From: Candidatus Saccharimonadia bacterium
Lineage (GTDB): Bacteria > Patescibacteriota > Saccharimonadia > UBA4664 > JBBRNT01
Assembly (NCBI GenBank): GCA_038230095.1
Contig: JBBRNT010000005.1
Location: forward strand, 18,619 to 82,618
Direction: 5' to 3'
Length of the DNA stretch: 64,000 nt
The notes beneath the pieces were generated by a model. It was not told where the DNA came from. It ran no database searches and saw only the letters and a list, made by a program, of their open reading frames with translations. Of the stretch, positions 4,519-51,517 are shown piece by piece. A program made the position numbers and the translations under genes. Position 1 is the first letter of the stretch. Each line of letters begins with the position of its first letter.

Positions 4519-4577
4519 AGTATCTCCTTCGTGGTGCAAACGATCCGCCGGGGCGGGTCTCCCACATCATTTATTAA
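4519..4577 (-). promoter_or_regulatory. candidate L1-binding autoregulatory leader upstream of rplK (copy 1)
   Basis: Minus strand: aaatgatgtgggagacccgccccggcggatcgtttgcaccacgaaggagatactATG; the motif is shared with the rplA leader. Confidence 0.35.
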
Positions 4578-5114
4578 TTACAGTTTCTTGACCTGGAGGC
4601 TGTCGAGCTCCACGGGTGTCTCGCGACCGAACATGTTTACGAGGACCTTGATCTTGCCCTTGTTCTCGTCAATCTCATTGACCATACCGTCGAAGCCCTT
4701 GAAGGGACCGTCAGTAATGTTGACCGACTCGCCAATGCTGAAGTCAATGTTGTACTTCGGCTCCTCAACTCCCATGCGCTTCTGGATATGACGGACCTCA
4801 TCTGGGCTGATTGGGGTAGGTGTAGTGCCTGAGCCAACAAAGCCGGTAACGTTTGGTGTGTTACGGACAACGTACCAAGAGTCCTCGGTAACGTCCATTT
4901 GAACCAGCACGTAGCCTGGGAATATGCGGCGCTCAACAATGCGGCGCTTGCCGTTCTTAATCTCGATTTGATTTTCCTTAGGGACAATCACGTCGAATAT
5001 CTTGTCGGCCATATCCATGGTCTCAATACGCTGGCGGAGGTTTTCGGAGACACGATCCTCATAGCCCGAATAGGTATGGATAACGTACCACTGCTGTTTT
5101 GTGTCTTTGGACAT
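4578..5114 (-). CDS. nusG: transcription termination/antitermination factor NusG
   Basis: NGN domain WYVIHTYSGYE plus a KOW domain (FSIGESVNITDGPFKGFDGMV). Confidence 0.92.
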   Translation of the reverse strand: MSKDTKQQWYVIHTYSGYEDRVSENLRQRIETMDMADKIFDVIVPKENQIEIKNGKRRIVERRIFPGYVLVQMDVTEDSWYVVRNTPNVTGFVGSGTTPTPISPDEVRHIQKRMGVEEPKYNIDFSIGESVNITDGPFKGFDGMVNEIDENKGKIKVLVNMFGRETPVELDSLQVKKL

Positions 5115-14963: not shown

Positions 14964-15039
14964 TGGCAGGAGAGACAGGGATCGAACCTGCGACACCCGG
15001 TTTTGGAGACCGGTGCTCTACCAACTGAGCTACTCTCCT
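14964..15039 (-). tRNA. tRNA-Trp (anticodon CCA)
   Basis: Minus strand AGGAGAGTAGCTCAGTTGGTAGAGCACCGGTCTCCAAAACCGGGTGTCGCAGGTTCGATCCCTGTCTCTCCTGCCA. 7-bp acceptor stem, anticodon loop CTCCAAA, T-loop TTCGATC, encoded CCA end. Confidence 0.88.
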
Positions 15040-15108
15040 AGGTGCTCACCGCCCGTGAGCTAGACCAAGTGTATCACTCTCCACCTAGGTTGATAACCGG
15101 GAAGTAAA

Positions 15109-15270
15109 CTACTTGGATTCTTTGAATTCGACGACTTTGTTCAGACGCTTGGAGTACTTCTTGAGTACAAGGCGATCTGTCGTGTTCTTAGGATTCTTCT
15201 GGGTCATGTAGACCGTGGTTGGATCCTCGTCGTTGCGCAGGGCAATGTAGGGACGATTACGCTTTGGCAT
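15109..15270 (-). CDS. rpmG: 50S ribosomal protein L33
   Basis: MPKRNRPYIALRNDEDPTTVYMTQKNPKNTTDRLVLKKYSKRLNKVVEFKESK. Start set at the internal Met; the ORF track extends to 15294. Confidence 0.8.
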   Translation of the reverse strand: MPKRNRPYIALRNDEDPTTVYMTQKNPKNTTDRLVLKKYSKRLNKVVEFKESK

Positions 15271-15472
15271 GGGGTTGATCTTCCTTCGGGACAATTAATG
15301 ATGCAATGATGTAGGCGAGCGTTGCGGGTAGTATAGCAGTAATAACCGTGACACAGATGACGGCCAGGCGGATTACGTTTGAATCAACGCCAAAGTAGAC
15401 GCCAAGACCGCCGCAGAGGCCGGTGATCTTCTTGTCGGTGTCGGATAAGTACAATTTTTTCATACTGGTCAT
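15257..15472 (-). CDS. PspC-domain membrane protein
   Basis: KKLYLSDTDKKITGLCGGLGVYFGVDSNVIRL followed by a TM helix (PspC-family signature). Confidence 0.7.
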   Translation of the reverse strand: MTSMKKLYLSDTDKKITGLCGGLGVYFGVDSNVIRLAVICVTVITAILPATLAYIIASLIVPKEDQPHAKA

Positions 15473-15496
15473 AGTACACCTAAGAATACAATGCTA

Positions 15497-15571
<75 letters not shown>

Positions 15572-15775
15572 ACCTCGCTCGTAAGCTCTAGCCTAGTAAT
15601 ACGACTCTTGTATTACTCTGGCCTCTGCTCGTCACTCGGTCTTGCCTCGCCACACAGCCTATTGGCTTGGTCTGACTCGGCTGTTGGTTGCTAGCCTAGA
15701 CTACATCCGACGTAATTCATCGGCAAGTCGCATTTTGTAATGCTCGGGCAGATAGCTGCTCTGTTTAGGACGAAG

Positions 15776-15861
15776 TGGTGCCGGGTGTAGGATTTGAACC
15801 TACGAAGGAATACACCAGCTGATTTACAGTCAGCCCCCTTTGACCACTTGGGTAACCCGGC
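15776..15861 (-). tRNA. tRNA-Tyr (anticodon GTA), long variable arm
   Basis: Minus strand GCCGGGTTACCCAAGTGGTCAAAGGGGGCTGACTGTAAATCAGCTGGTGTATTCCTTCGTAGGTTCAAATCCTACACCCGGCACCA; type II tRNA. Confidence 0.88.
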
Positions 15862-15895
15862 TTGTCGCTATACGAGCACAAAACTGACATAGGAC

Positions 15896-15971
15896 TGGAG
15901 CCGACGGAGGGATTCGAACCCACGACCCGCTGTTTACAAAACAGCCGCTCTAGCCTCTGAGCTACGTCGGC
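15896..15971 (-). tRNA. tRNA-Thr (anticodon TGT)
   Basis: Minus strand GCCGACGTAGCTCAGAGGCTAGAGCGGCTGTTTTGTAAACAGCGGGTCGTGGGTTCGAATCCCTCCGTCGGCTCCA; anticodon loop TTTGTAA; one U-U mismatch in the T-stem. Confidence 0.8.
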
Positions 15972-43923: not shown

Positions 43924-44103
43924 GGTGTCCTTTATGGTGGTTAATGACGGATTGTCGGCGCTAACAAGAAAAAAGCGCCGAAGCACTTGGCTTATGATAG
44001 CCGAAAACTACGTGTCAATCAAGTAAATTATAGCAGGCCTGGCTAAAGCCACGTGGTTGTCGTATAAGTAGGTGGATCGAACCCGATAGCACCTGGAGTC
44101 ACT

Positions 44104-44592
44104 GTGAATCTGTATGCAATGCTTGACCAGCAGCTCGTAAAGCTATGGCGCGGTGTCCTCCGCGTACTGTGCGGCCTGACGGGCCGTAGCAATTTCTGCT
44201 TTGCCCGACTCATCATCATAGCCGGTGCCTACTGGAGTGTTCGCTGGGCCGCCTGGCGCCTGACGGACTGGGTAGCGGTGACCGGCTTCGGCGCGATTAG
44301 TGTGGTAATCGTATGGCTGACCATACTGCTGCAAAGGGACGGAACCGAAGTGCGGGTTGGTGTACAGCGACTGCTTATGGCCTTCCGGAGTTCGCTAAAC
44401 ATTACAATCGCCATTGTCGGCTTCCAGTCCATTTTCAACCCCGCGATCCGCAGAATGGTGCTTATCATGGCGCTACTTGACGTGCTGGCCTACTTCGTGT
44501 CCATCCCGACTCCACCCCAGTCAAGCTGGTTCACACGGGTCGGTCGGGCAGCGCGCAACCAGGTTTCCATGAGCCCTCACTCGCGACGCTAG
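44104..44592 (+). CDS. hypothetical 4-TM membrane protein (paralog pair, member 1)
   Basis: 162 aa; similar architecture to the 44677..45219 product. Confidence 0.5.
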   Translation: MNLYAMLDQQLVKLWRGVLRVLCGLTGRSNFCFARLIIIAGAYWSVRWAAWRLTDWVAVTGFGAISVVIVWLTILLQRDGTEVRVGVQRLLMAFRSSLNITIAIVGFQSIFNPAIRRMVLIMALLDVLAYFVSIPTPPQSSWFTRVGRAARNQVSMSPHSRR

Positions 44593-44596
44593 ACCC

Positions 44597-44636
44597 CGCC
44601 CCAATCTGCACGGATTGGGGCGGTAACTTTTCTAGG
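44597..44636 (+). terminator. intrinsic terminator (ccgccccaatc-tgcacg-gattggggcgg, then a T-rich tail)
   Basis: Perfect 11-bp stem immediately after the stop; homologous to the terminator at 45223. Confidence 0.55.
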
Positions 44637-44676
44637 TGGGATAATTGTGGTATAAAAGTGTTCTATTGGCCCACTC

Positions 44677-45219
44677 TTGATAGGACAGGTCATGCTCCAT
44701 ATCGACAACCTACTGGTTAGGTTCTACGCCTACCCCCTCCGCTGGCTGAAGCGGCGCTACAAGCGTGATAACTTCTGGGCGGCGAAGTACTGTCTGATCA
44801 CAGCGGCCATTGCTATCCAGCCGGTTGTACTCATGTTCCACGACCACATCATTCGTGTGCTCGCGGCAGGCTTCACTATGTGTATGGGCCTATTCTACCT
44901 ACTCATCTGGACCTTCGTCCGTGAACTGCGCTCTAAGATGCCCGAATTCCATACGGGTGGTGTCCCCCAGGTATATGGCCGGCTAGTAGCTGCTCGCCTG
45001 AGTACGCTGGCCACGCTGCCGGTGCTTCTGACTTACGAGCTGCTCACAAAACTCAACGGCTTTGTGGTCGCGAGCTACCTGCTGGTAATATCGGCACTCT
45101 ATGCCGCCACAATTGTGAACCTGAACCCGCCCAAATGGGTGGGCCAGACCGGTCGCTCTGCATATGAAGCACTCCGCCGACTTGTCCGCCCAGCCCGTAC
45201 GATTGGCAACGCCCACTAA
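44677..45219 (+). CDS. hypothetical 4-TM membrane protein (paralog pair, member 2)
   Basis: 180 aa. Confidence 0.5.
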   Translation: MIGQVMLHIDNLLVRFYAYPLRWLKRRYKRDNFWAAKYCLITAAIAIQPVVLMFHDHIIRVLAAGFTMCMGLFYLLIWTFVRELRSKMPEFHTGGVPQVYGRLVAARLSTLATLPVLLTYELLTKLNGFVVASYLLVISALYAATIVNLNPPKWVGQTGRSAYEALRRLVRPARTIGNAH

Positions 45220-45222
45220 GTA

Positions 45223-45258
45223 CCCGCCCCTATCCTCTGGATTGGGGCGGTTTTATTT
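45223..45258 (+). terminator. intrinsic terminator (cccgcccc...ggattggggcgg-ttttatttg)
   Basis: Shares the gattggggcgg arm with the terminator at 44597. Confidence 0.55.
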
Positions 45259-45279
45259 GCAATGAAAAGGGGACCCGGA

Positions 45280-46248
45280 TTAGTCCAGGTCCCAACTGAG
45301 TTGGACGGTGTCTTGGCTTGTGGTGGTCTTCCAGAGCGGGGGCCTAGCGCGGTCCAGTACACGGAACTGGGCCTGGCGGAGGGCTAGAATGGCGGAATCG
45401 CTGCTATCTACGCCATGAGGCGTACGGGCAATGAGTCCACCCATGTGCCCGTTGGCCTGCCCGAGGGTAACGCTGCCAGATAATGCTCCATGGAGCTTAC
45501 CCCGCACTCGACGGCGGGCCGCTCGAGTCGGGCGCATAGTAGCCTCCCCAGTGGCAGCAATGTAGGTGATAGCTACGCCGCAGATGGTAACCGACTGCCT
45601 TGTAATGTCACTGTACTTGGTCTTCTTGTCGTTGCAGCGGAAGCCGGCCTCTTCAATAATGCGACGGATCCGGCGACGCTTGCGCTCGCCAATGGGGCTC
45701 GGCGAGGAGAAGGTAAGGTCATCGGCAAACCGAGTGTAGGCCATACCGCGGTAGTCCTGACCGGTCATGAGCAGCATTAGCCGCCTGTCTATGTGGTGGT
45801 CGCAGTAGTGATTGAACAGATCAGGCGAGGCTGGCGCGCCCGTAACCAAACCAACCTGCCCGCCGGGATAGCGCACCAAAGCATAGCGGAGCAGCCAGGC
45901 CGTTAGCCGGTCGCTATCAAGTCCGGGCTCGTAGCCTGCAAGCAACCGGGCTAGACGCCCAGCATCTACATTCTGGAAGGCATGAGCCAGGTCTAGCTGG
46001 TAGAAATAGCGGTGGTGCTGGTGCGGGAAGGCATTACTAATGCTACCTCGGCCCGGCACGGCGCCGTGGGCCTTGACCATGGGGTGGTTCTGGCTCCGTA
46101 GCCACGCGATGAGACGGCCATGTAGCTCGCTCATACTGGGGTTTGGTGGCCAGAAATTGCGACCACTCGCATCACGGTACATACCCAGCCAAGCAGGGTT
46201 GGCACCGGTCGGTAGCTCAAACGGGAAAGGATCCACCGGCACCTCCAT
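45280..46248 (-). CDS. reverse transcriptase, retron-type; RT domain only, with no maturase or endonuclease domains
   Basis: 322 aa with these motifs: GRGSISNAFPHQHH (NAxxH-like, RT1), YFYQLDLAHAFQNV (RT2), GLVTGAPASPDLFNHYCD (RT4, SP not SQ), YTRFADDLTF (YxDD, RT5), and a VT..G-like TRQSVTICGVAI in the thumb region. A GGAGA RBS precedes the ATG. Confidence 0.8.
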   Translation of the reverse strand: MEVPVDPFPFELPTGANPAWLGMYRDASGRNFWPPNPSMSELHGRLIAWLRSQNHPMVKAHGAVPGRGSISNAFPHQHHRYFYQLDLAHAFQNVDAGRLARLLAGYEPGLDSDRLTAWLLRYALVRYPGGQVGLVTGAPASPDLFNHYCDHHIDRRLMLLMTGQDYRGMAYTRFADDLTFSSPSPIGERKRRRIRRIIEEAGFRCNDKKTKYSDITRQSVTICGVAITYIAATGEATMRPTRAARRRVRGKLHGALSGSVTLGQANGHMGGLIARTPHGVDSSDSAILALRQAQFRVLDRARPPLWKTTTSQDTVQLSWDLD

Positions 46249-46884
46249 GGGTCTGGCCAGTCTCCCCCACTGTACAGATGGGCTCTAGATGGAGCAACCA
46301 TAAGGACAACGAGAAGGGCCCCGGCATATACCGGGGCCCGAGGGGAGGACTGGGGGAAGGAAGAAGGATTGATGATAGGTATGCGCCGAGAGATGCTACC
46401 CCGCGACCGAACCACCAGCTGGCTTGCCGATAGCCACCTATCACCCACCGCGTAGGGCACGTCTGCGGTGCTAAACCCCACTTCTTGGCCATACATAGAT
46501 GGTCCCCATCGCGACAGAGCAGACAACCCGTTCGAGACCCGATCGCCTTCAGGCCATCCCAGAGAGGACGACATGCAGCCTCCGTCAAAGCGTCAGCCAC
46601 GCACCGAGCTGAGCCCCGGCTGGGATGTTGCCACAGCTCGCGCAGTGGCAGGCTAACCGTGGGGGCACAACGGACGCATAGCGCCGCAGATACCGCCGCG
46701 GTAAACATGGCTCCAGGCCGCTGAGCCGAGGGCGTAGGCCCCGGGTTGCAAGCTCCACATTACTGCCATTCGCTGGCGCGTTTGGCTACTCCAGCAAGTA
46801 CTACTGGAGGGTAGTCGTGTCTGTGCCCCGACACAGCGGCCTCTAGAATGCCGATACCACCACTATACCGAGACTCCCAGATGG
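46249..46884 (-). ncRNA. candidate retron non-coding RNA (msr/msd) region upstream of the RT; boundaries not determined
   Basis: A 636-nt gap between two same-strand genes with no convincing ORF, only overlapping multi-frame GC-rich ORFs. Contains a perfect 9-bp hairpin gggccccgg-catata-ccggggccc (46316..46339) and further hairpins (caccgc..gcggtg at 46446..46470; gccac..gtggc near 46630..46655; ctgtg..cacag near 46815..46835). Confidence 0.3.
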
Positions 46885-47592
46885 CTACAAGTGGTATGTC
46901 AGCTCTGCAAAGAAACGGCCGTTGGGCTCGCGGTCTAGGTAGGCTACTAGGTCTGGGACGCTCGGAATAAGTTCGGCGCCCGGCACGGCAGATAGATGGG
47001 CCCAGAAGGCCTGTCCCACGGTACCAACACCGGGTATATCATCAGTTCGTAGACTGCCCTGGAGGGCGGTGCCCAGAAAGAAATGGAAGAGGATCTGGCT
47101 GACAATCTCATTGTTCTGGAAGATGGTAACATAGCCATCGCCGCGGTGCTTCAGTGTAGCCTTAAGGCCTGACTTATCCCGCAGCTCCCGCTCGGCGGCA
47201 GCGTAAATGCCCTCGCCGAGGTGCACTTTTCCGTAGGGAAAACTCACCATGCCATAGAGCGGCTGGCGAGCGCGGCGGTATAGCAGGTACTCGCCGGCCT
47301 CGTTCTGGCAGCAGACTAGGGTAACCACTCGAGGCTGGAAACGCGGCTTCATAATGGTCAGGCTCATGCGCTCGGCATAGTCCTGGCCGGATGGCGTAAG
47401 CGTGTACAAGCCGTCTGGGCGCTTGGCCACCAGCTTGTCGCGCATAACGGCCTTCAGATGGTACATAAACAAATTGCTGTCGACGCCCTCGGGCCGTAGT
47501 TCCGAGAAGCGTGCTGCATCGGTCAAGATAAGCGTCTTCACTATGTGCTGCTGGATATGGTGCATGGCTCCCCTTCGCTTCGAGTGTAGCAA
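46885..47592 (-). CDS. winged-helix (N-terminal) plus Nudix-fold (C-terminal) protein with a degenerate Nudix box
   Basis: N-terminal HIVKTLILTDAARFSELRPEGVDSNLFMYHLKAVMRDKLV is wHTH-like. The Nudix box is GKVHLGEGIYAAAERELRDKSGL (G-x5-E-x7-REL-x-DK-x-GL, where EE has become DK). Confidence 0.65.
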   Translation of the reverse strand: MLHSKRRGAMHHIQQHIVKTLILTDAARFSELRPEGVDSNLFMYHLKAVMRDKLVAKRPDGLYTLTPSGQDYAERMSLTIMKPRFQPRVVTLVCCQNEAGEYLLYRRARQPLYGMVSFPYGKVHLGEGIYAAAERELRDKSGLKATLKHRGDGYVTIFQNNEIVSQILFHFFLGTALQGSLRTDDIPGVGTVGQAFWAHLSAVPGAELIPSVPDLVAYLDREPNGRFFAELTYHL

Positions 47593-47674
47593 AGAATTGA
47601 GTCAAAACATATTGACGCGAGCACCTGGGGTGGTAGTCTTTAGGCAAATAGATCTGCCCCTTGAAAGGACCACT

Positions 47675-47989
47675 ATGTCCCAAACCAGCCACAGCATTGG
47701 TGATCGAAGTGCCGCTGCCGCCCAGTTCCAGGAGCTAGTCCTCCACCTAGGTGACACACCTGATGCCGCCACAAGACTGGCCAAATCCATCGAAGTAAGC
47801 CTCACTACCGAGCGGCTGGGTCATGACCCAGCGATTAACACCTACCGGGTGCTTATTCGGACACCATCCGGTGAGTGGCCTATGCGCTACGCCTCGCTCG
47901 AGGGCCTGGAGGCATTTCTGAACGGTGTTCAAGCACTGGGCGCCTGCCTGGGCATCCACTTCGCTATCCCCGACCTGCCCCAGCGCTAG
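47675..47989 (+). CDS. hypothetical protein
   Basis: 104 aa from the ATG at 47675, preceded by AAAGGA. The longer track ORF (47402..) overlaps the opposite-strand gene and is rejected. Confidence 0.4.
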   Translation: MSQTSHSIGDRSAAAAQFQELVLHLGDTPDAATRLAKSIEVSLTTERLGHDPAINTYRVLIRTPSGEWPMRYASLEGLEAFLNGVQALGACLGIHFAIPDLPQR

Positions 47990-48045
47990 CGCTTCCCACT
48001 AAGTAGACCGACCGACCGCCGGCCCAAGTCCGACCGCAACCCCTT

Positions 48046-48080
48046 CCGCCCTAGCTTTCTGAGCTGGGGCGGTTTCATTT
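48046..48080 (+). terminator. intrinsic terminator (ccgccctagc...gctggggcgg-tttcattt)
   Basis: GC stem followed by a T-rich tail, downstream of the 47675..47989 ORF. Confidence 0.45.
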
Positions 48081-48187
48081 GCCTACCTGATGGTCAAATA
48101 TTTTTGACTCAAAAGGTCCTGCTTGGTGTAGCTCATACAGCCACCTACGCTAGGGGTGTACGAGAAGTTCTTTGACAAGGAGACAAT

Positions 48188-48406
48188 ATGGGCGACCATG
48201 GTTACTACGATCTGACACCAGAACAGGAAAGAAGTCAGGCGGAGCATGCAGCTAGCGAACTCGAGCAGGTCTACAGCCGTGATAGTTACAAGTACGTCGA
48301 CATTTGCCTGGATTGTGGCTGCCATGTAGCCAGACGAAAGACCCACGACCAAGTCTGCGTGCCCAAGCTGGAGCGTAGGACTCAAGCATCGGGAGAAGGA
48401 GCATGA
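48188..48406 (+). CDS. hypothetical small zinc-ribbon protein (operon gene 1 of 4)
   Basis: 72 aa; CLDCGCH...C motif; stop overlaps the next start (ATGA). Confidence 0.45.
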   Translation: MGDHGYYDLTPEQERSQAEHAASELEQVYSRDSYKYVDICLDCGCHVARRKTHDQVCVPKLERRTQASGEGA

Positions 48407-49245
48407 CAACTTACGAGGATGTTGATCGGGGCATCTACCACGAGCGCTTGCTCCTGGTTGCCCAAAGTCCACTGCGGCCAATTTTAGTAGAGTTGGCAGC
48501 CGCCCTAGCTGAGTTCCAGCTAGCCCACCCAATTGCCGCGCGGTATGCACAGGCGCGCTATGAGCTTCTGCTGGCCTCCTGGTCGGCAGCTAGTGTGGGC
48601 TGGTGCACTAAGTGCCGCCAGATAGGGCTGGAGCTGCCGCAGCGCTACTGTGTTGAAACCACCAGACACTGCTCCAAGCTAGATAGCGACTACGATGTTG
48701 TGAGCTGGGATGAAGCCGTGACCGAAATCCACTGGCTGTGCAGCACCTGCCGCGGCGCATGCGCGAACCTATACCCCTGCGAGCTCCGCGATGGTTACTG
48801 GTGGTGCGGCCTCGGCGAGGCAGCTTGGGTGCCACGGCGGCCCACCGTGCACGAATTTACGCTGAAAACACTCGATGCTCTGAGTACAGCTCAGCAGCAA
48901 ACCTTGGAACGGAGGTGGGGCCTGCTACCGGCTCTGGGCCTGTCACCGTCCGACGTTACGGGTCCATGCCGTGTCTGGATCGCAGCCCATCTACCTCTCG
49001 TTACCGGCTACACGGCCGATGCAACTCATATCCAGGCGGTGCTAGAAGAGACGGCCATGGCCAACAGCCACCTGGGCGCTACATCTGAGCAACTGGCCAA
49101 AATGATTGGCCCGTGGACCAATTGCCCTCACTGCGGAGCAGGGCCAGGCTATCAGGAGCGCCGCAACCACAACATGACGTGGGGCGACGCAGATATACAT
49201 TGCTCCCTCTGCCACGGCTATGTGAGGAGCTGGGATGCAAGCTGA
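48403..49245 (+). CDS. hypothetical Cys-rich protein with multiple CxxC pairs (operon gene 2 of 4)
   Basis: 280 aa with CTKC, CSTCRGAC, CPHC and CSLCH motifs. Confidence 0.5.
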   Translation: MTTYEDVDRGIYHERLLLVAQSPLRPILVELAAALAEFQLAHPIAARYAQARYELLLASWSAASVGWCTKCRQIGLELPQRYCVETTRHCSKLDSDYDVVSWDEAVTEIHWLCSTCRGACANLYPCELRDGYWWCGLGEAAWVPRRPTVHEFTLKTLDALSTAQQQTLERRWGLLPALGLSPSDVTGPCRVWIAAHLPLVTGYTADATHIQAVLEETAMANSHLGATSEQLAKMIGPWTNCPHCGAGPGYQERRNHNMTWGDADIHCSLCHGYVRSWDAS

Positions 49246-49438
49246 GCCAATTAACTTCTTTCCTATTACGGTGCGGGTAATCATTGATGGACGGATACTA
49301 GCCGCTAGCCTTGAAGGGTACCGGCAGGTGCCAGGACAGTTCTACCCCACGCATACCCTAGCGATAGTGACGGTCGCCGGCCAGCTAAGCCAGCTAGTCT
49401 GCCTGACACAGCTCCTAGATGAATCGGACGCCGCGTGA
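49235..49438 (+). CDS. hypothetical small protein (operon gene 3 of 4)
   Basis: 67 aa; overlaps its neighbours by 11 nt upstream and 4 nt downstream. Confidence 0.35.
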   Translation: MQAEPINFFPITVRVIIDGRILAASLEGYRQVPGQFYPTHTLAIVTVAGQLSQLVCLTQLLDESDAA

Positions 49439-49824
49439 CTCGAATGCAAGCGGCTTGGCGGCTGCTTCGGCTTTGCGGTGTGCCTGTGGGCACTGCGGGG
49501 GCGCGTGAGGTGGCGTGGTTCCTGGCCTGGCTTGCGGGGCAGCAGCCAAAAGTCCTGTCTCGGTTTGACCCCGGGCGCAATGATGAGCATACCCGGGAAC
49601 CAGTGCATGACGAGAGCTACTGGTGGACCAAGCTGTGCATGTACCACCACCGCGCAGCCCAGCTGGGGCTGGAAAGCCCAGAAGGGCGCCAGGTAGTGTT
49701 TGAGCTAGCCGCTACTGCGGCAGGCTGGTGTGCGTCCATCGTACGTGTGTACGGCCAACCCAGCTCCGCTAGTGACGACTTCCGAGCCGGTGTAACAGGT
49801 CTTGATGCCATGACTAAGCCCTAG
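49435..49824 (+). CDS. hypothetical protein (operon gene 4 of 4)
   Basis: 129 aa; no recognised motif. Confidence 0.4.
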   Translation: MTRMQAAWRLLRLCGVPVGTAGAREVAWFLAWLAGQQPKVLSRFDPGRNDEHTREPVHDESYWWTKLCMYHHRAAQLGLESPEGRQVVFELAATAAGWCASIVRVYGQPSSASDDFRAGVTGLDAMTKP

Positions 49825-49864
49825 CCCAACTGACCCCGATAGAGTAATCTGTCGGGGTCTTTTA

Positions 49865-51517
49865 CTAGACCTGGCCTATCTGGAGCGTCTCGCCACCAAG
49901 CTTATCGGTGAAGTAGCTATCATGCGAGATGTAGAGAATGGCGCCGTGGTAGTTGGTAAGCGCTTTTTCGAGCTCTTCGATAGACGGCAGGTCTAGGTGA
50001 TTGGTAGGCTCGTCTAGGATGAGCAGATTGGGCTCCCCGGCCAGCATATTAATAAGCTGGAAGCGGGCTTTCTGGCCACCGCTAAGCACACTGATAGGTA
50101 GCTGGTAGTCGGTGGTAGGATCAAACAGGTACTGCGATAGAGTTTGGCGAACTTTCTGATCATTAATAGGCAGTTCATTAATGCGAAATACTTCAATAAC
50201 AGCGTCGCCAAGCGTCATTTCCAGATAGCGTCCGTCAATTTCTTGTTCATACAGGCCAATCTTGGTAGTACGGTCAATGACAATCTGGCCGCCAAATACC
50301 TGTGCCCGGCTCTCGCCCAACCCGGCCGTAGCAAGGATTTGTCGGACTAGTGTGGTTTTACCTGCACCGTTACGGCCACGTACCTGCAGGCGGTCGCTAT
50401 AGCGCAGCTGGGTAGTAATATTGGCAAATAATGGCTCCTTATAGCCCAAGGAGAGCCTGTCTAGCCCGAGGAGCTGGTGATAGCGGCCACTACCACCCTC
50501 GGTCGAGATACGGATGTTCTTCGCCTTGTACTTGTCATAGCGGTCAACTACCTTGTCCTGCAGCTGCTCCATCGAATCCGAATCTATCCAGAATGACGGC
50601 TTGACCATACTGGCCTTCAGCTCCTCATAGTGTTTGGTGAGTCGACGCTCCATAGGGATGAATGGGTTTGGCGTCTTGGAGGAGCCGGCCTTCTTCGCCC
50701 GGACTTCTTGGATCTGCTCATGCAGCTTCTCTAGCGTGCGCTGGGCTATCTCGTACTGGGCCATGGCCGTGACGGTGGCGACGCTATTCTGCTTGAGATA
50801 GTCATCATAGTTGCCGGTGTAGCTGACGGCGCGTTGTTCTTTTATCTCTATAATGCGGTCGACGTAGCGCAGGACGTCGCGGTCATGGCTAATAACACAG
50901 ACCGACTCCCCAGCGTTCTTAAACCACTCTATGAACTGCTGCTTGGCAATATAATCCATGTGGTTGGTGGGCTCGTCGATAAGCGCCAGATCGGCCTTGG
51001 ACTGAGTGACCTTGGCCAGCTCGACGAAGCGCTTCTGGCCACCAGACAGACGCGCCATGGGGGCGTAAGCTAGATCACGGTTAATCTGGTAGGCTTCTAG
51101 CGTCTGGACCACTTTGTCCTCCACTTCGTAGTAGCCCAGCTCGGTAAAGCGAGTAAGGGCGTCGCTATACTCGTGGATCTTCTTCATATCCTCACCCATA
51201 TGCTCGGGGTAAGTGTCTAGAATGTGCTTGAGTGCAGCGTACTGCGGAAGCTCGCTCAGTACGTAGCTGACCGCTGTAACTTCTTCTGGAAGATGGTGCT
51301 CCTGAGCAGTAGCTACCACTATGAGCCCACGGCGCGTCTGGATTGACCCATCATACTGAGGATCTTCCCCCGTGAGAATTCGAAACAGTGAGGTCTTGCC
51401 GACGCCATTGCGCCCAATAAGGGCAACTTTCTCATTATCTTGAAGCGTAATCTTCAGATCCCGGAAGAGGTGCTTGGTGCCGAGAGTCTTGTTGGTAATT
51501 TCTGCAGTAAGTAACAT
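49865..51517 (-). CDS. ABC-F family ATPase with two ABC domains and no TMD (translation-associated; EttA/Uup/YbiT-like)
   Basis: Two Walker A motifs (GRNGVGKTS and GRNGAGKTT), two LSGGQK signatures and two Walker B motifs; 550 aa. Confidence 0.88.
   Translation of the reverse strand: MLLTAEITNKTLGTKHLFRDLKITLQDNEKVALIGRNGVGKTSLFRILTGEDPQYDGSIQTRRGLIVVATAQEHHLPEEVTAVSYVLSELPQYAALKHILDTYPEHMGEDMKKIHEYSDALTRFTELGYYEVEDKVVQTLEAYQINRDLAYAPMARLSGGQKRFVELAKVTQSKADLALIDEPTNHMDYIAKQQFIEWFKNAGESVCVISHDRDVLRYVDRIIEIKEQRAVSYTGNYDDYLKQNSVATVTAMAQYEIAQRTLEKLHEQIQEVRAKKAGSSKTPNPFIPMERRLTKHYEELKASMVKPSFWIDSDSMEQLQDKVVDRYDKYKAKNIRISTEGGSGRYHQLLGLDRLSLGYKEPLFANITTQLRYSDRLQVRGRNGAGKTTLVRQILATAGLGESRAQVFGGQIVIDRTTKIGLYEQEIDGRYLEMTLGDAVIEVFRINELPINDQKVRQTLSQYLFDPTTDYQLPISVLSGGQKARFQLINMLAGEPNLLILDEPTNHLDLPSIEELEKALTNYHGAILYISHDSYFTDKLGGETLQIGQV

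Follow-up and report, generated by a model that had tools for sequence, protein, structure and literature searches.

Does the region free of open reading frames (ORFs) that precedes a retron-type reverse transcriptase (RT) gene of a Candidatus Saccharimonadia bacterium hold the RNA with which this enzyme works? The question arises from a 64,000-nucleotide (nt) stretch of contig JBBRNT010000005.1 (positions 18,619 to 82,618, forward strand), called the window below and numbered from its first letter. The current view of retrons is that of tripartite defence systems, in which an RT and an msr/msd RNA are combined with a toxic effector. In the present case, an RT of the retron type stands by itself amid core genes; its closest relatives, too, are solitary. 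The original prediction took the interval between the RT gene and an upstream Nudix gene, called the gap below, as the candidate msr/msd. The two elements at issue are the following.

45280..46248, minus strand: retron-type reverse transcriptase, 322 amino acids (Pfam RVT_1, PADLOC, PDB profile, AlphaFold2/Foldseek)
46249..46884, minus strand: non-coding, GC-rich region without ORFs that precedes the RT (the gap), upstream part of an acquired RT cassette

Our favoured reading, which we hold with middling confidence, is that the gap is the transcribed non-coding part of a cassette with a solitary retron-type RT, and that the RNA partner of the RT lies within it.

The boundaries given in the original prediction are right. 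The Nudix ORF, on the minus strand, has its stop at 46885 and the RT has its ATG at 46248, which leaves 636 nt. As also proposed, the gap is GC-rich, with a GC content of 0.60–0.64 inside as compared to about 0.56 around it, and it contains only mutually overlapping ORFs, whose codon scores are shadow-like. Using a codon log-odds score trained on 16 long ORFs of the window, values of –0.34 and –0.37 were obtained for the two longest gap ORFs, ORF163 (46217–46708, minus strand) and ORF147, respectively, as compared to a mean of +0.48 in real genes. GC contents at the three codon positions were flat in the gap ORFs (0.63/0.62/0.61), whereas real genes showed 0.62/0.40/0.63. The gap also displays a strand asymmetry, with an AT skew of +0.14 to +0.25 on the plus strand.

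One alternative is that the gap encodes ORF163 or another small ORF, or that it is the decayed remnant of the DUF5661 and HisKA genes found at this place in a related locus, L252. ORF163 is indeed a gene-caller prediction on a public contig, and its overlap with the RT start is of the kind seen in operons. However, besides its negative codon score and flat GC profile, it has an amino-acid composition like that of translated non-coding DNA. An exhaustive phmmer search among 1.84 billion representative proteins matched only ORF163 itself, which forms a singleton cluster, and neither ORF163 nor the gap matched any Pfam, NCBIfam or PADLOC family. In these searches, no protein-coding gene recognizable by homology, for which the original prediction had left room, was found. 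Remnants of the L252 genes were also looked for and rejected: with the L252 proteins as tblastn queries, the best E value within 46249–46884 was 26, and the best match near the gap (E = 0.15, 46183–46266) overlapped the RT start. We regard a coding gap as very improbable. Because of the codon scores, the flat GC values and the absence of homologs and families for ORF163, the gap is non-coding as far as its sequence can tell.

A phage or plasmid origin was considered and rejected, since nothing similar to the gap DNA was found in plasmid or phage collections and the viral contigs yielded only distant retron RTs, at most 33% identical to that of the window. An Infernal-type check of the locus, envisaged in the original prediction, matched no family. 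A permissive Rfam 15 scan of 44000–49000, which is a weak test for a retron non-coding RNA (ncRNA), returned three chance-level matches only (E 2.7–8.8), and at the gathering threshold only tRNAs were found in the whole window.

The RT itself is of the retron type, as judged from its sequence and predicted fold, and falls within no defined retron type. Its ORF is intact and its Pfam match is RVT_1; translation and alignment place FADD at the catalytic YxDD position and reveal an NAxxH-like motif, NAFPH. In PADLOC, all the strong RT matches were retron RT models, RT_other and RT_outgroup being the best at about 89 bits, and the RT scored far below the cut-offs of the NCBIfam retron models. A family profile built from the RT and 27 homologs was searched against the PDB. 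It matched, over nearly the full length, the retron RTs Ec83, Ec86, Ec78/St85, Kva2 and Ec67 with E values of 1e-30 to 1e-20 (best matches, Ec83 at 3.6e-30 and Ec86 at 9.6e-29), as compared to 1e-9 for group II intron RTs and to 3e-7, in the palm region only, for DRT2. The AlphaFold2 model had a mean predicted local distance difference test (pLDDT) score of 85, and a Foldseek search of the PDB placed retron RTs in all of the first 18 ranks. A diversity-generating retroelement (DGR) was considered and rejected. The motif-4 region reads GAPASPDLFN, a type of motif that follows the retron and group II pattern, not that of DGRs; no pair resembling template and variable repeats (TR/VR) was found; and no DGR structure was among the PDB profile matches, the coverage of DGR RTs in the PDB being uncertain.

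The RT of the window is a singleton in databases. The nearest RTs are 35–41% identical to it, and those with a taxonomic label belong to Patescibacteria (Saccharibacteria, Paceibacterota). Ten relative loci have gene calls; each shows a solitary RT surrounded by unrelated housekeeping genes and preceded by an ORF-free gap of 205–1069 nt. For one pair of relatives, L166 and L167, the upstream gaps are 87–97% identical over about 700 nt, as compared to 72–80% for the RT coding sequences, and several compensatory changes are visible in the gaps.

In these relatives, the region upstream of the RT contains an RNA unit with a fixed order of elements: a G/A-rich a1 segment (9–16 nt), an AUGAGGA motif, a hairpin P1, a segment B, a C/U-rich a2 segment and a segment B'. 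P1 corresponds to CAUCACUCAUGUGGUG in L164 and in L166/L167. B is a conserved CGA(A)CC-UCAGCGG, a2 is the exact complement of a1, and B', CCGCUGA, follows a2 after 0–4 nt. The order A-B-A'-B' implies an H-type pseudoknot. Eleven units were defined in eight loci, and the L167 ortholog of the first L166 unit was added as a twelfth row. The units span 197–287 nt, and the one closest to the RT ends 18–71 nt before the ATG. The unit occurs twice in L162 and L164 and three times in L166/L167, the period being 274–446 nt. The units were found at the following positions.

L166:2468-3481: RNA units, with orthologous units in L167
L164:2801-3324: RNA units
L162:3010-3211: RNA unit
L082:3571-3830: RNA unit
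L084:3593-3857: RNA unit
L088:137-357: RNA unit
L168:3207-3482: RNA unit
L170:3165-3429: RNA unit

When the four segments of the twelve units were concatenated, 97.9% of the cells paired, 13 of 16 pairs had changed on both sides, and none of 500 shuffles equalled this result; helix A had been picked as the best complement in each locus, with 7 of 13 observed scores above the maximum of the null. When B..B' was searched for with a covariance model, the 27 family loci yielded 13 significant copies and the 98 loci of other retron-type RTs (703 kb) yielded none. The B..B' module is therefore specific to this RT clade. In L164, an extra inverted B..B' module (4554–4621, minus strand, 43.9 bits) is present downstream of the RT, so that modules flank the RT gene; this copy may, for example, have arisen by duplication, represent an antisense unit or mark the end of a mobile element. 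Rfam gave no match in the upstream regions of 20 relatives' loci, and literature searches returned no description of this RT clade or of its RNA unit.

Many units are followed by a terminator-like hairpin. After the first unit of L166 (2761–2795) and of its L167 ortholog, the pairing of this hairpin (GAAGGGUUGUG/CACAACCCUUC versus GAAGAGCCGUG/CGCGGCUCUUC) is kept despite changes in the stem, which suggests that each unit is its own transcription unit. Moreover, at least eight relatives have a strong hairpin about 25–110 nt upstream of the RT ATG, in most cases followed by a U- or pyrimidine-rich tract. Hairpins comparable to that of the window occur in L082, L084, L085, L090, L091, L163, L170 and L171. 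Overall, the window and the relatives have a common layout, consisting of an ORF-free region of several hundred nt, a strong terminator-like hairpin and the RT; the sequence of the region is not shared.

In the window, the structured elements of the gap are concentrated next to the RT.

46316..46339, minus strand: terminator-like hairpin GGGCCCCGG(U)-AUAU-(G)CCGGGGCCC, nine Watson-Crick pairs and one G-U pair (terminator scan)
46306..46315, minus strand: U-rich tail UUCUCGUUGU immediately 3' of the hairpin, with six U among its 10 nt
46342..46353, minus strand: pyrimidine-rich 5' arm CCAGUCCUCCCC of a closing helix (inverted repeat I8; paired in the minimum-free-energy and centroid folds)
46257..46268, minus strand: purine-rich 3' arm GGGGGAGACUGG of the closing helix, ending 8 nt before the RT ATG

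The original prediction had drawn attention to several strong hairpins, among them a perfect 9-bp stem. The latter is real. It is located at 46316–46324/46331–46339, 68–91 nt upstream of the RT ATG, and becomes a 10-bp stem in the minimum-free-energy fold. The plural, in contrast, reduces to this single hairpin, which resembles an intrinsic terminator of the RT strand more than it does an msd stem. A terminator consensus scan picked it up with 10 pairs, 9 of them GC, and the tail TTCTCGTTGT. The stem-loop and U-tract typical of an intrinsic (Rho-independent) terminator are both found at 46339–46306, the tail being imperfect and the terminator a predicted one. Perfect hairpins of at least 9 bp are rare in the window (12 observed versus 1.5 expected from dinucleotide shuffles). 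Because most of the others are found at the ends of genes (13 nt downstream of fusA, 4 nt downstream of ORF162 and 27 nt downstream of rpsG, for instance), this kind of motif behaves as a terminator in this genome.

When 120-nt folds were slid along the minus strand, a single outlier was observed, at 46260–46379 (z = –4.3). The fold of the whole gap had z = –2.6, a signal due to the RT-proximal element alone. For the RT-proximal 126 nt (46240–46365), z was –3.47 and 1 of 200 shuffles was as stable. This fold is a three-way arrangement in which a 12-bp helix surrounds the GC hairpin and a second, weaker hairpin. The 3' arm GGGGGAGACUGG of the helix includes the sequence GGGGGAG, which resembles a Shine-Dalgarno sequence, may act as such, and is paired with the upstream pyrimidine tract. 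A purine-rich partner further upstream was looked for on behalf of the pyrimidine tract located 5' of the hairpin, and none was found above chance.

A closing helix so near the RT raises the possibility of a canonical retron. An msr/msd bounded by a1 and a2 would then lie somewhere in the gap, priming from the 2'-OH of a branching G would produce branched multicopy single-stranded DNA (msDNA), and the GC hairpin would be an msd or msr stem. In a compact version, a1 would be 46353–46342 and a2 46268–46257, with the GC hairpin as msr and the second hairpin (about 46306–46270) as msd, giving an ncRNA of 97 nt. The unusually stable 12-bp helix, which closes two hairpins 8 nt before the ATG, does have the geometry of a small element closed by a1/a2; the RT is of the retron type by sequence and fold, the gap is upstream on the same strand, and the relatives possess true a1/a2-like long-range helices (9–16 bp, spanning 197–287 nt). 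However, the helix is significant within a local structure and spans only 97 nt, and an ncRNA of this size is smaller than the retron ncRNAs known to us. The hairpin with its U-rich tail resembles the terminators of this genome. Elsewhere in the gap, several a1/a2 candidates were examined and none exceeded chance, the best long-range inverted repeat having p of about 0.10; a 12-nt pair at 46679–46690/46462–46473 bounds an ordinary fold (z = –0.98). Together with the lack of an Rfam match and of a conserved effector gene, and with a branching G that cannot be recognized from the sequence, these results make a canonical retron unlikely. As regards the msr/msd candidate of the original prediction, its non-coding character, its strand and its position directly upstream of a retron-type RT stand; no a1/a2 pair above chance and no Rfam match were found to accompany them. 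This sequence does not allow msr, msd, a1 and a2 to be placed.

Outside the RT-proximal element, the gap is unremarkable. The direct repeats mentioned in the original prediction are 8–10 nt long and at chance level, the best self-alignment scoring 21 as compared to a shuffle range of 17–27. About 500 of the 636 nt are without structure, repeat or motif signal above chance, and the sole significant element is terminator-like and sequesters the ribosome binding site (RBS). Together with the absence of an effector gene and the singleton status of the RT, this would fit a spacer. The gap would be a leftover of the insertion, forming a long 3' untranslated region of the Nudix mRNA, in which only the Nudix terminator (46339–46306) and a short leader controlling RT translation are functional; the RNA partner would be elsewhere or lost, and the RT would be an orphan, possibly decaying. 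Yet the terminators of this genome are found 4–27 nt after stop codons, not 545 nt, and the RT ORF is intact with its catalytic motif. The ORF-free upstream region is, moreover, a family trait, in relatives more constrained than the RT gene, and the AT skew of the gap hints at a strand-specific constraint. We therefore consider a spacer rather unlikely.

The genomic surroundings indicate how the gap and the RT came to lie together. The neighbouring features are the following.

46885..47592, minus strand: winged helix-turn-helix (wHTH)-Nudix gene, context only, resident and outside the cassette (synteny with L252–L255)
45270..45293, minus strand: terminator-like hairpin located at the stop codon of the RT, where the cassette ends downstream (terminator scan)

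In L252–L255, which carry a 58%-identical Nudix, the gene order is rpoC-rpsL-rpsG-ABCF-(three genes)-Nudix-DUF5661-HisKA-(three genes)-fusA, without RT. The RpsL, RpsG, ABC-F and EF-G proteins of the window are 82–88% identical to their L252 counterparts (88% for EF-G and ABC-F), and the gap and the RT occupy the place of DUF5661, HisKA and other genes of L252. Because the related genome keeps the frame around Nudix without the RT, the RT and the gap (about 45220–46884) form an acquired cassette of 1.66 kb, inserted in the rpsG-ABCF-Nudix-fusA neighbourhood. The Nudix gene, on which the framing of this locus as a retron system had drawn, turns out to be a resident syntenic gene. As a partner of the RT it was rejected, because of the synteny without RT in L252–L255 and because no Nudix homolog was found in any of the 171 RT loci collected.

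The Nudix protein has about 50 full-length homologs with 41–60% identity. These homologs, including a 92%-identical fragment (P0066), begin at a methionine located 9 codons inside the listed ORF, so that the true start is probably M10 at 47565 rather than the listed TTG at 47592. The P0066 fragment covers the N-terminal half of the protein, and its contig probably does not reach across the gap. More generally, the interval between ABC-F and fusA is a variable island when the window (44000–49900) is compared with the str-operon neighbourhood of L252 (4000–11000): only Nudix is common to both, at 58% identity as compared to 82–88% for the flanking core genes. At the other end of the cassette, two convergent terminator-like hairpins stand back to back at 45202–45293, between the RT stop and the end of the oppositely oriented ORF180; the plus-strand one (45202–45265) gave a weak Yfr10-like Rfam match. 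Further away, four tRNA genes are clustered at 14967–15971 on the minus strand.

How might such a cassette work? We infer a course that leads from transcription and its termination to RNA binding and cDNA synthesis by the RT, along with control of its translation. The gap would be transcribed on the minus strand, through read-through out of Nudix, through initiation at a weak promoter located at the Nudix stop, or both. Read-through is proposed because Nudix seems to lack a terminator of its own, the terminator scan having shown no terminator-like site adjoining its stop codon. The promoter is a speculative candidate.

46862..46890, minus strand: weak sigma-70-like promoter candidate (–35 TTGTAG at 46885–46890, 17-nt spacer, –10 TATAGT at 46862–46867)

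Read from the sequence, this candidate agrees with 8 of 12 consensus positions and overlaps the Nudix stop codon; a promoter scan of the gap found nothing, the candidate lying below the scan threshold. Most transcripts would end at the hairpin and U-rich tail (46339–46306), giving an ncRNA of about 550 nt. The RT would bind a structured part of this RNA and use it as primer and template for cDNA. Transcripts that read through the hairpin would carry the RT ORF, with the RBS sequestered in the helix 46353–46342/46268–46257, which would keep RT translation low. The gap probably supplies the RNA partner of the RT, a view suggested by the retron-type fold together with the presence of a constrained RNA at the same place in the relatives.

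Several observations weigh against this reading. In canonical retrons, msr, msd and RT are co-transcribed, and a terminator between the ncRNA and the RT departs from this arrangement; the tail of the putative terminator is, in addition, imperfect. All 120-nt windows from 46340 to 46899 have z values between –1.6 and +1.5, no better than shuffled sequence. They include those surrounding the three other stems of the original prediction, which are only 5–6 bp long and unremarkable. No relative of the RT above 41% identity was found in the protein database or in genome, metagenome and viral contigs, so that the gap has no comparative support of its own. Finally, the RNA unit of the relatives could not be detected in the window. 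The best hit of the B..B' covariance model, at 46583–46624, scored 7.1 bits (E = 1.3) as compared to 36–54 bits for true copies; a look-alike of the B motif at 46718–46727 is outside the top 15 window sites of a position weight matrix; and the a1/a2 analogues in the gap have p values of 0.14 and 0.10.

The look-alike in question, CCCUCGG-CUCAGCGG (46734–46718, minus strand), resembles the B motif CCCCGACC-UCAGCGG and has a possible B', CCGUUGU, 44 nt downstream at 46673. It was rejected as B, since the corresponding a1/a2 score was at the null mean and both the matrix and the covariance model were non-significant. The P1 motif, searched as CAYYACYCAYGTRGTG and with an nhmmer profile, is absent from the gap, and a tandem-unit structure as in the relatives was not found in it.

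If the RT-proximal helix is taken as B/B' instead, the tract located 5' of B' pairs best with 46449–46434, with a score of 24 (p = 0.14) and a span of 193 nt like that of the relatives. A more specific proposal can be built on this, which we advance tentatively, as possible rather than probable. The RT of the window and its Patescibacteria relatives would form an effector-less lineage of retron-type RTs with its own class of RNA partner, a unit of about 200–290 nt whose pseudoknot combines a variable a1/a2 helix with the conserved UCAGCGG/CCGCUGA helix. Located directly upstream of the RT, the units would often come as 2–3 tandem copies, each closed by a terminator-like hairpin of its own. The gap would then be a strongly diverged copy, with B/B' at 46353–46342/46268–46257 and a1/a2 at about 46449–46434/46292–46277.

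Compared with known systems, the locus stands closest to retrons such as Ec86/Eco1, Ec83 and Ec78. It resembles them by its RT of about 320 amino acids, placed in the retron RT superfamily by profile and predicted fold, by the non-coding region directly upstream on the same strand and, in the relatives, by a1/a2-type helices that span about 200–290 nt and end just before the RT. It differs from them in that the RT matches no retron type (the best models, of about 89 bits, being 'other' and 'outgroup'), that a conserved effector gene is lacking from the window and the relatives alike, and that a terminator-like hairpin separates the putative ncRNA from the RT. The relatives differ further by their 1–3 tandem units with an additional B/B' helix, predicted to form a pseudoknot with a1/a2. 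To our knowledge, no such pseudoknot-forming helix has been described for retrons.

At the level of gene layout, the locus also recalls defence RTs of the DRT2 type, in which a single RT gene is preceded by a structured ncRNA and lacks a conserved protein partner. However, the RT is not a member of the UG2/Drt2 family: the NCBIfam Drt2 model gave 17.3 bits for a cut-off of 390, and DRT2 structures were matched at 3e-7 in the palm only. Group II intron and group II-like (G2L) RTs have a similar RT fold and came as second-tier structural matches, at 1e-9 versus 1e-30 for retron RTs; the window shows no intron RNA domains, no maturase or endonuclease (En) domains and no Rfam group II match. Lastly, the RT-proximal element by itself is reminiscent of an intrinsic terminator combined with an RBS-sequestering leader, with a GC-rich stem of 9–10 bp followed by a U-rich tract, and with GGGGGAG paired with a pyrimidine tract. 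It departs from this model by its imperfect U-tail (UUCUCGUUGU), by the absence of any known ligand-sensing or leader-peptide element and by the absence of an Rfam match; its function is a predicted one.

For the window itself, the direct evidence is modest and points to a divergent, effector-less retron-type RT. In practice, an msr/msd is not to be called from the window sequence, and the Nudix gene should not be annotated as a retron effector. The covarying, tandem and pseudoknotted RNA unit of the relatives, with its own terminators, was not found in Rfam or in the literature searched, and it is more interesting than the gap itself. If the RT does use the RNA seen in the relatives, the lineage would reveal the role of a retron-type RT that has no effector, and it would provide a new and compact RT/RNA pair for DNA synthesis inside cells. 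If the gap is indeed a diverged copy of this unit, minimal-genome bacteria would possess a retron-like system that operates with no toxin effector and whose RNA is built differently.

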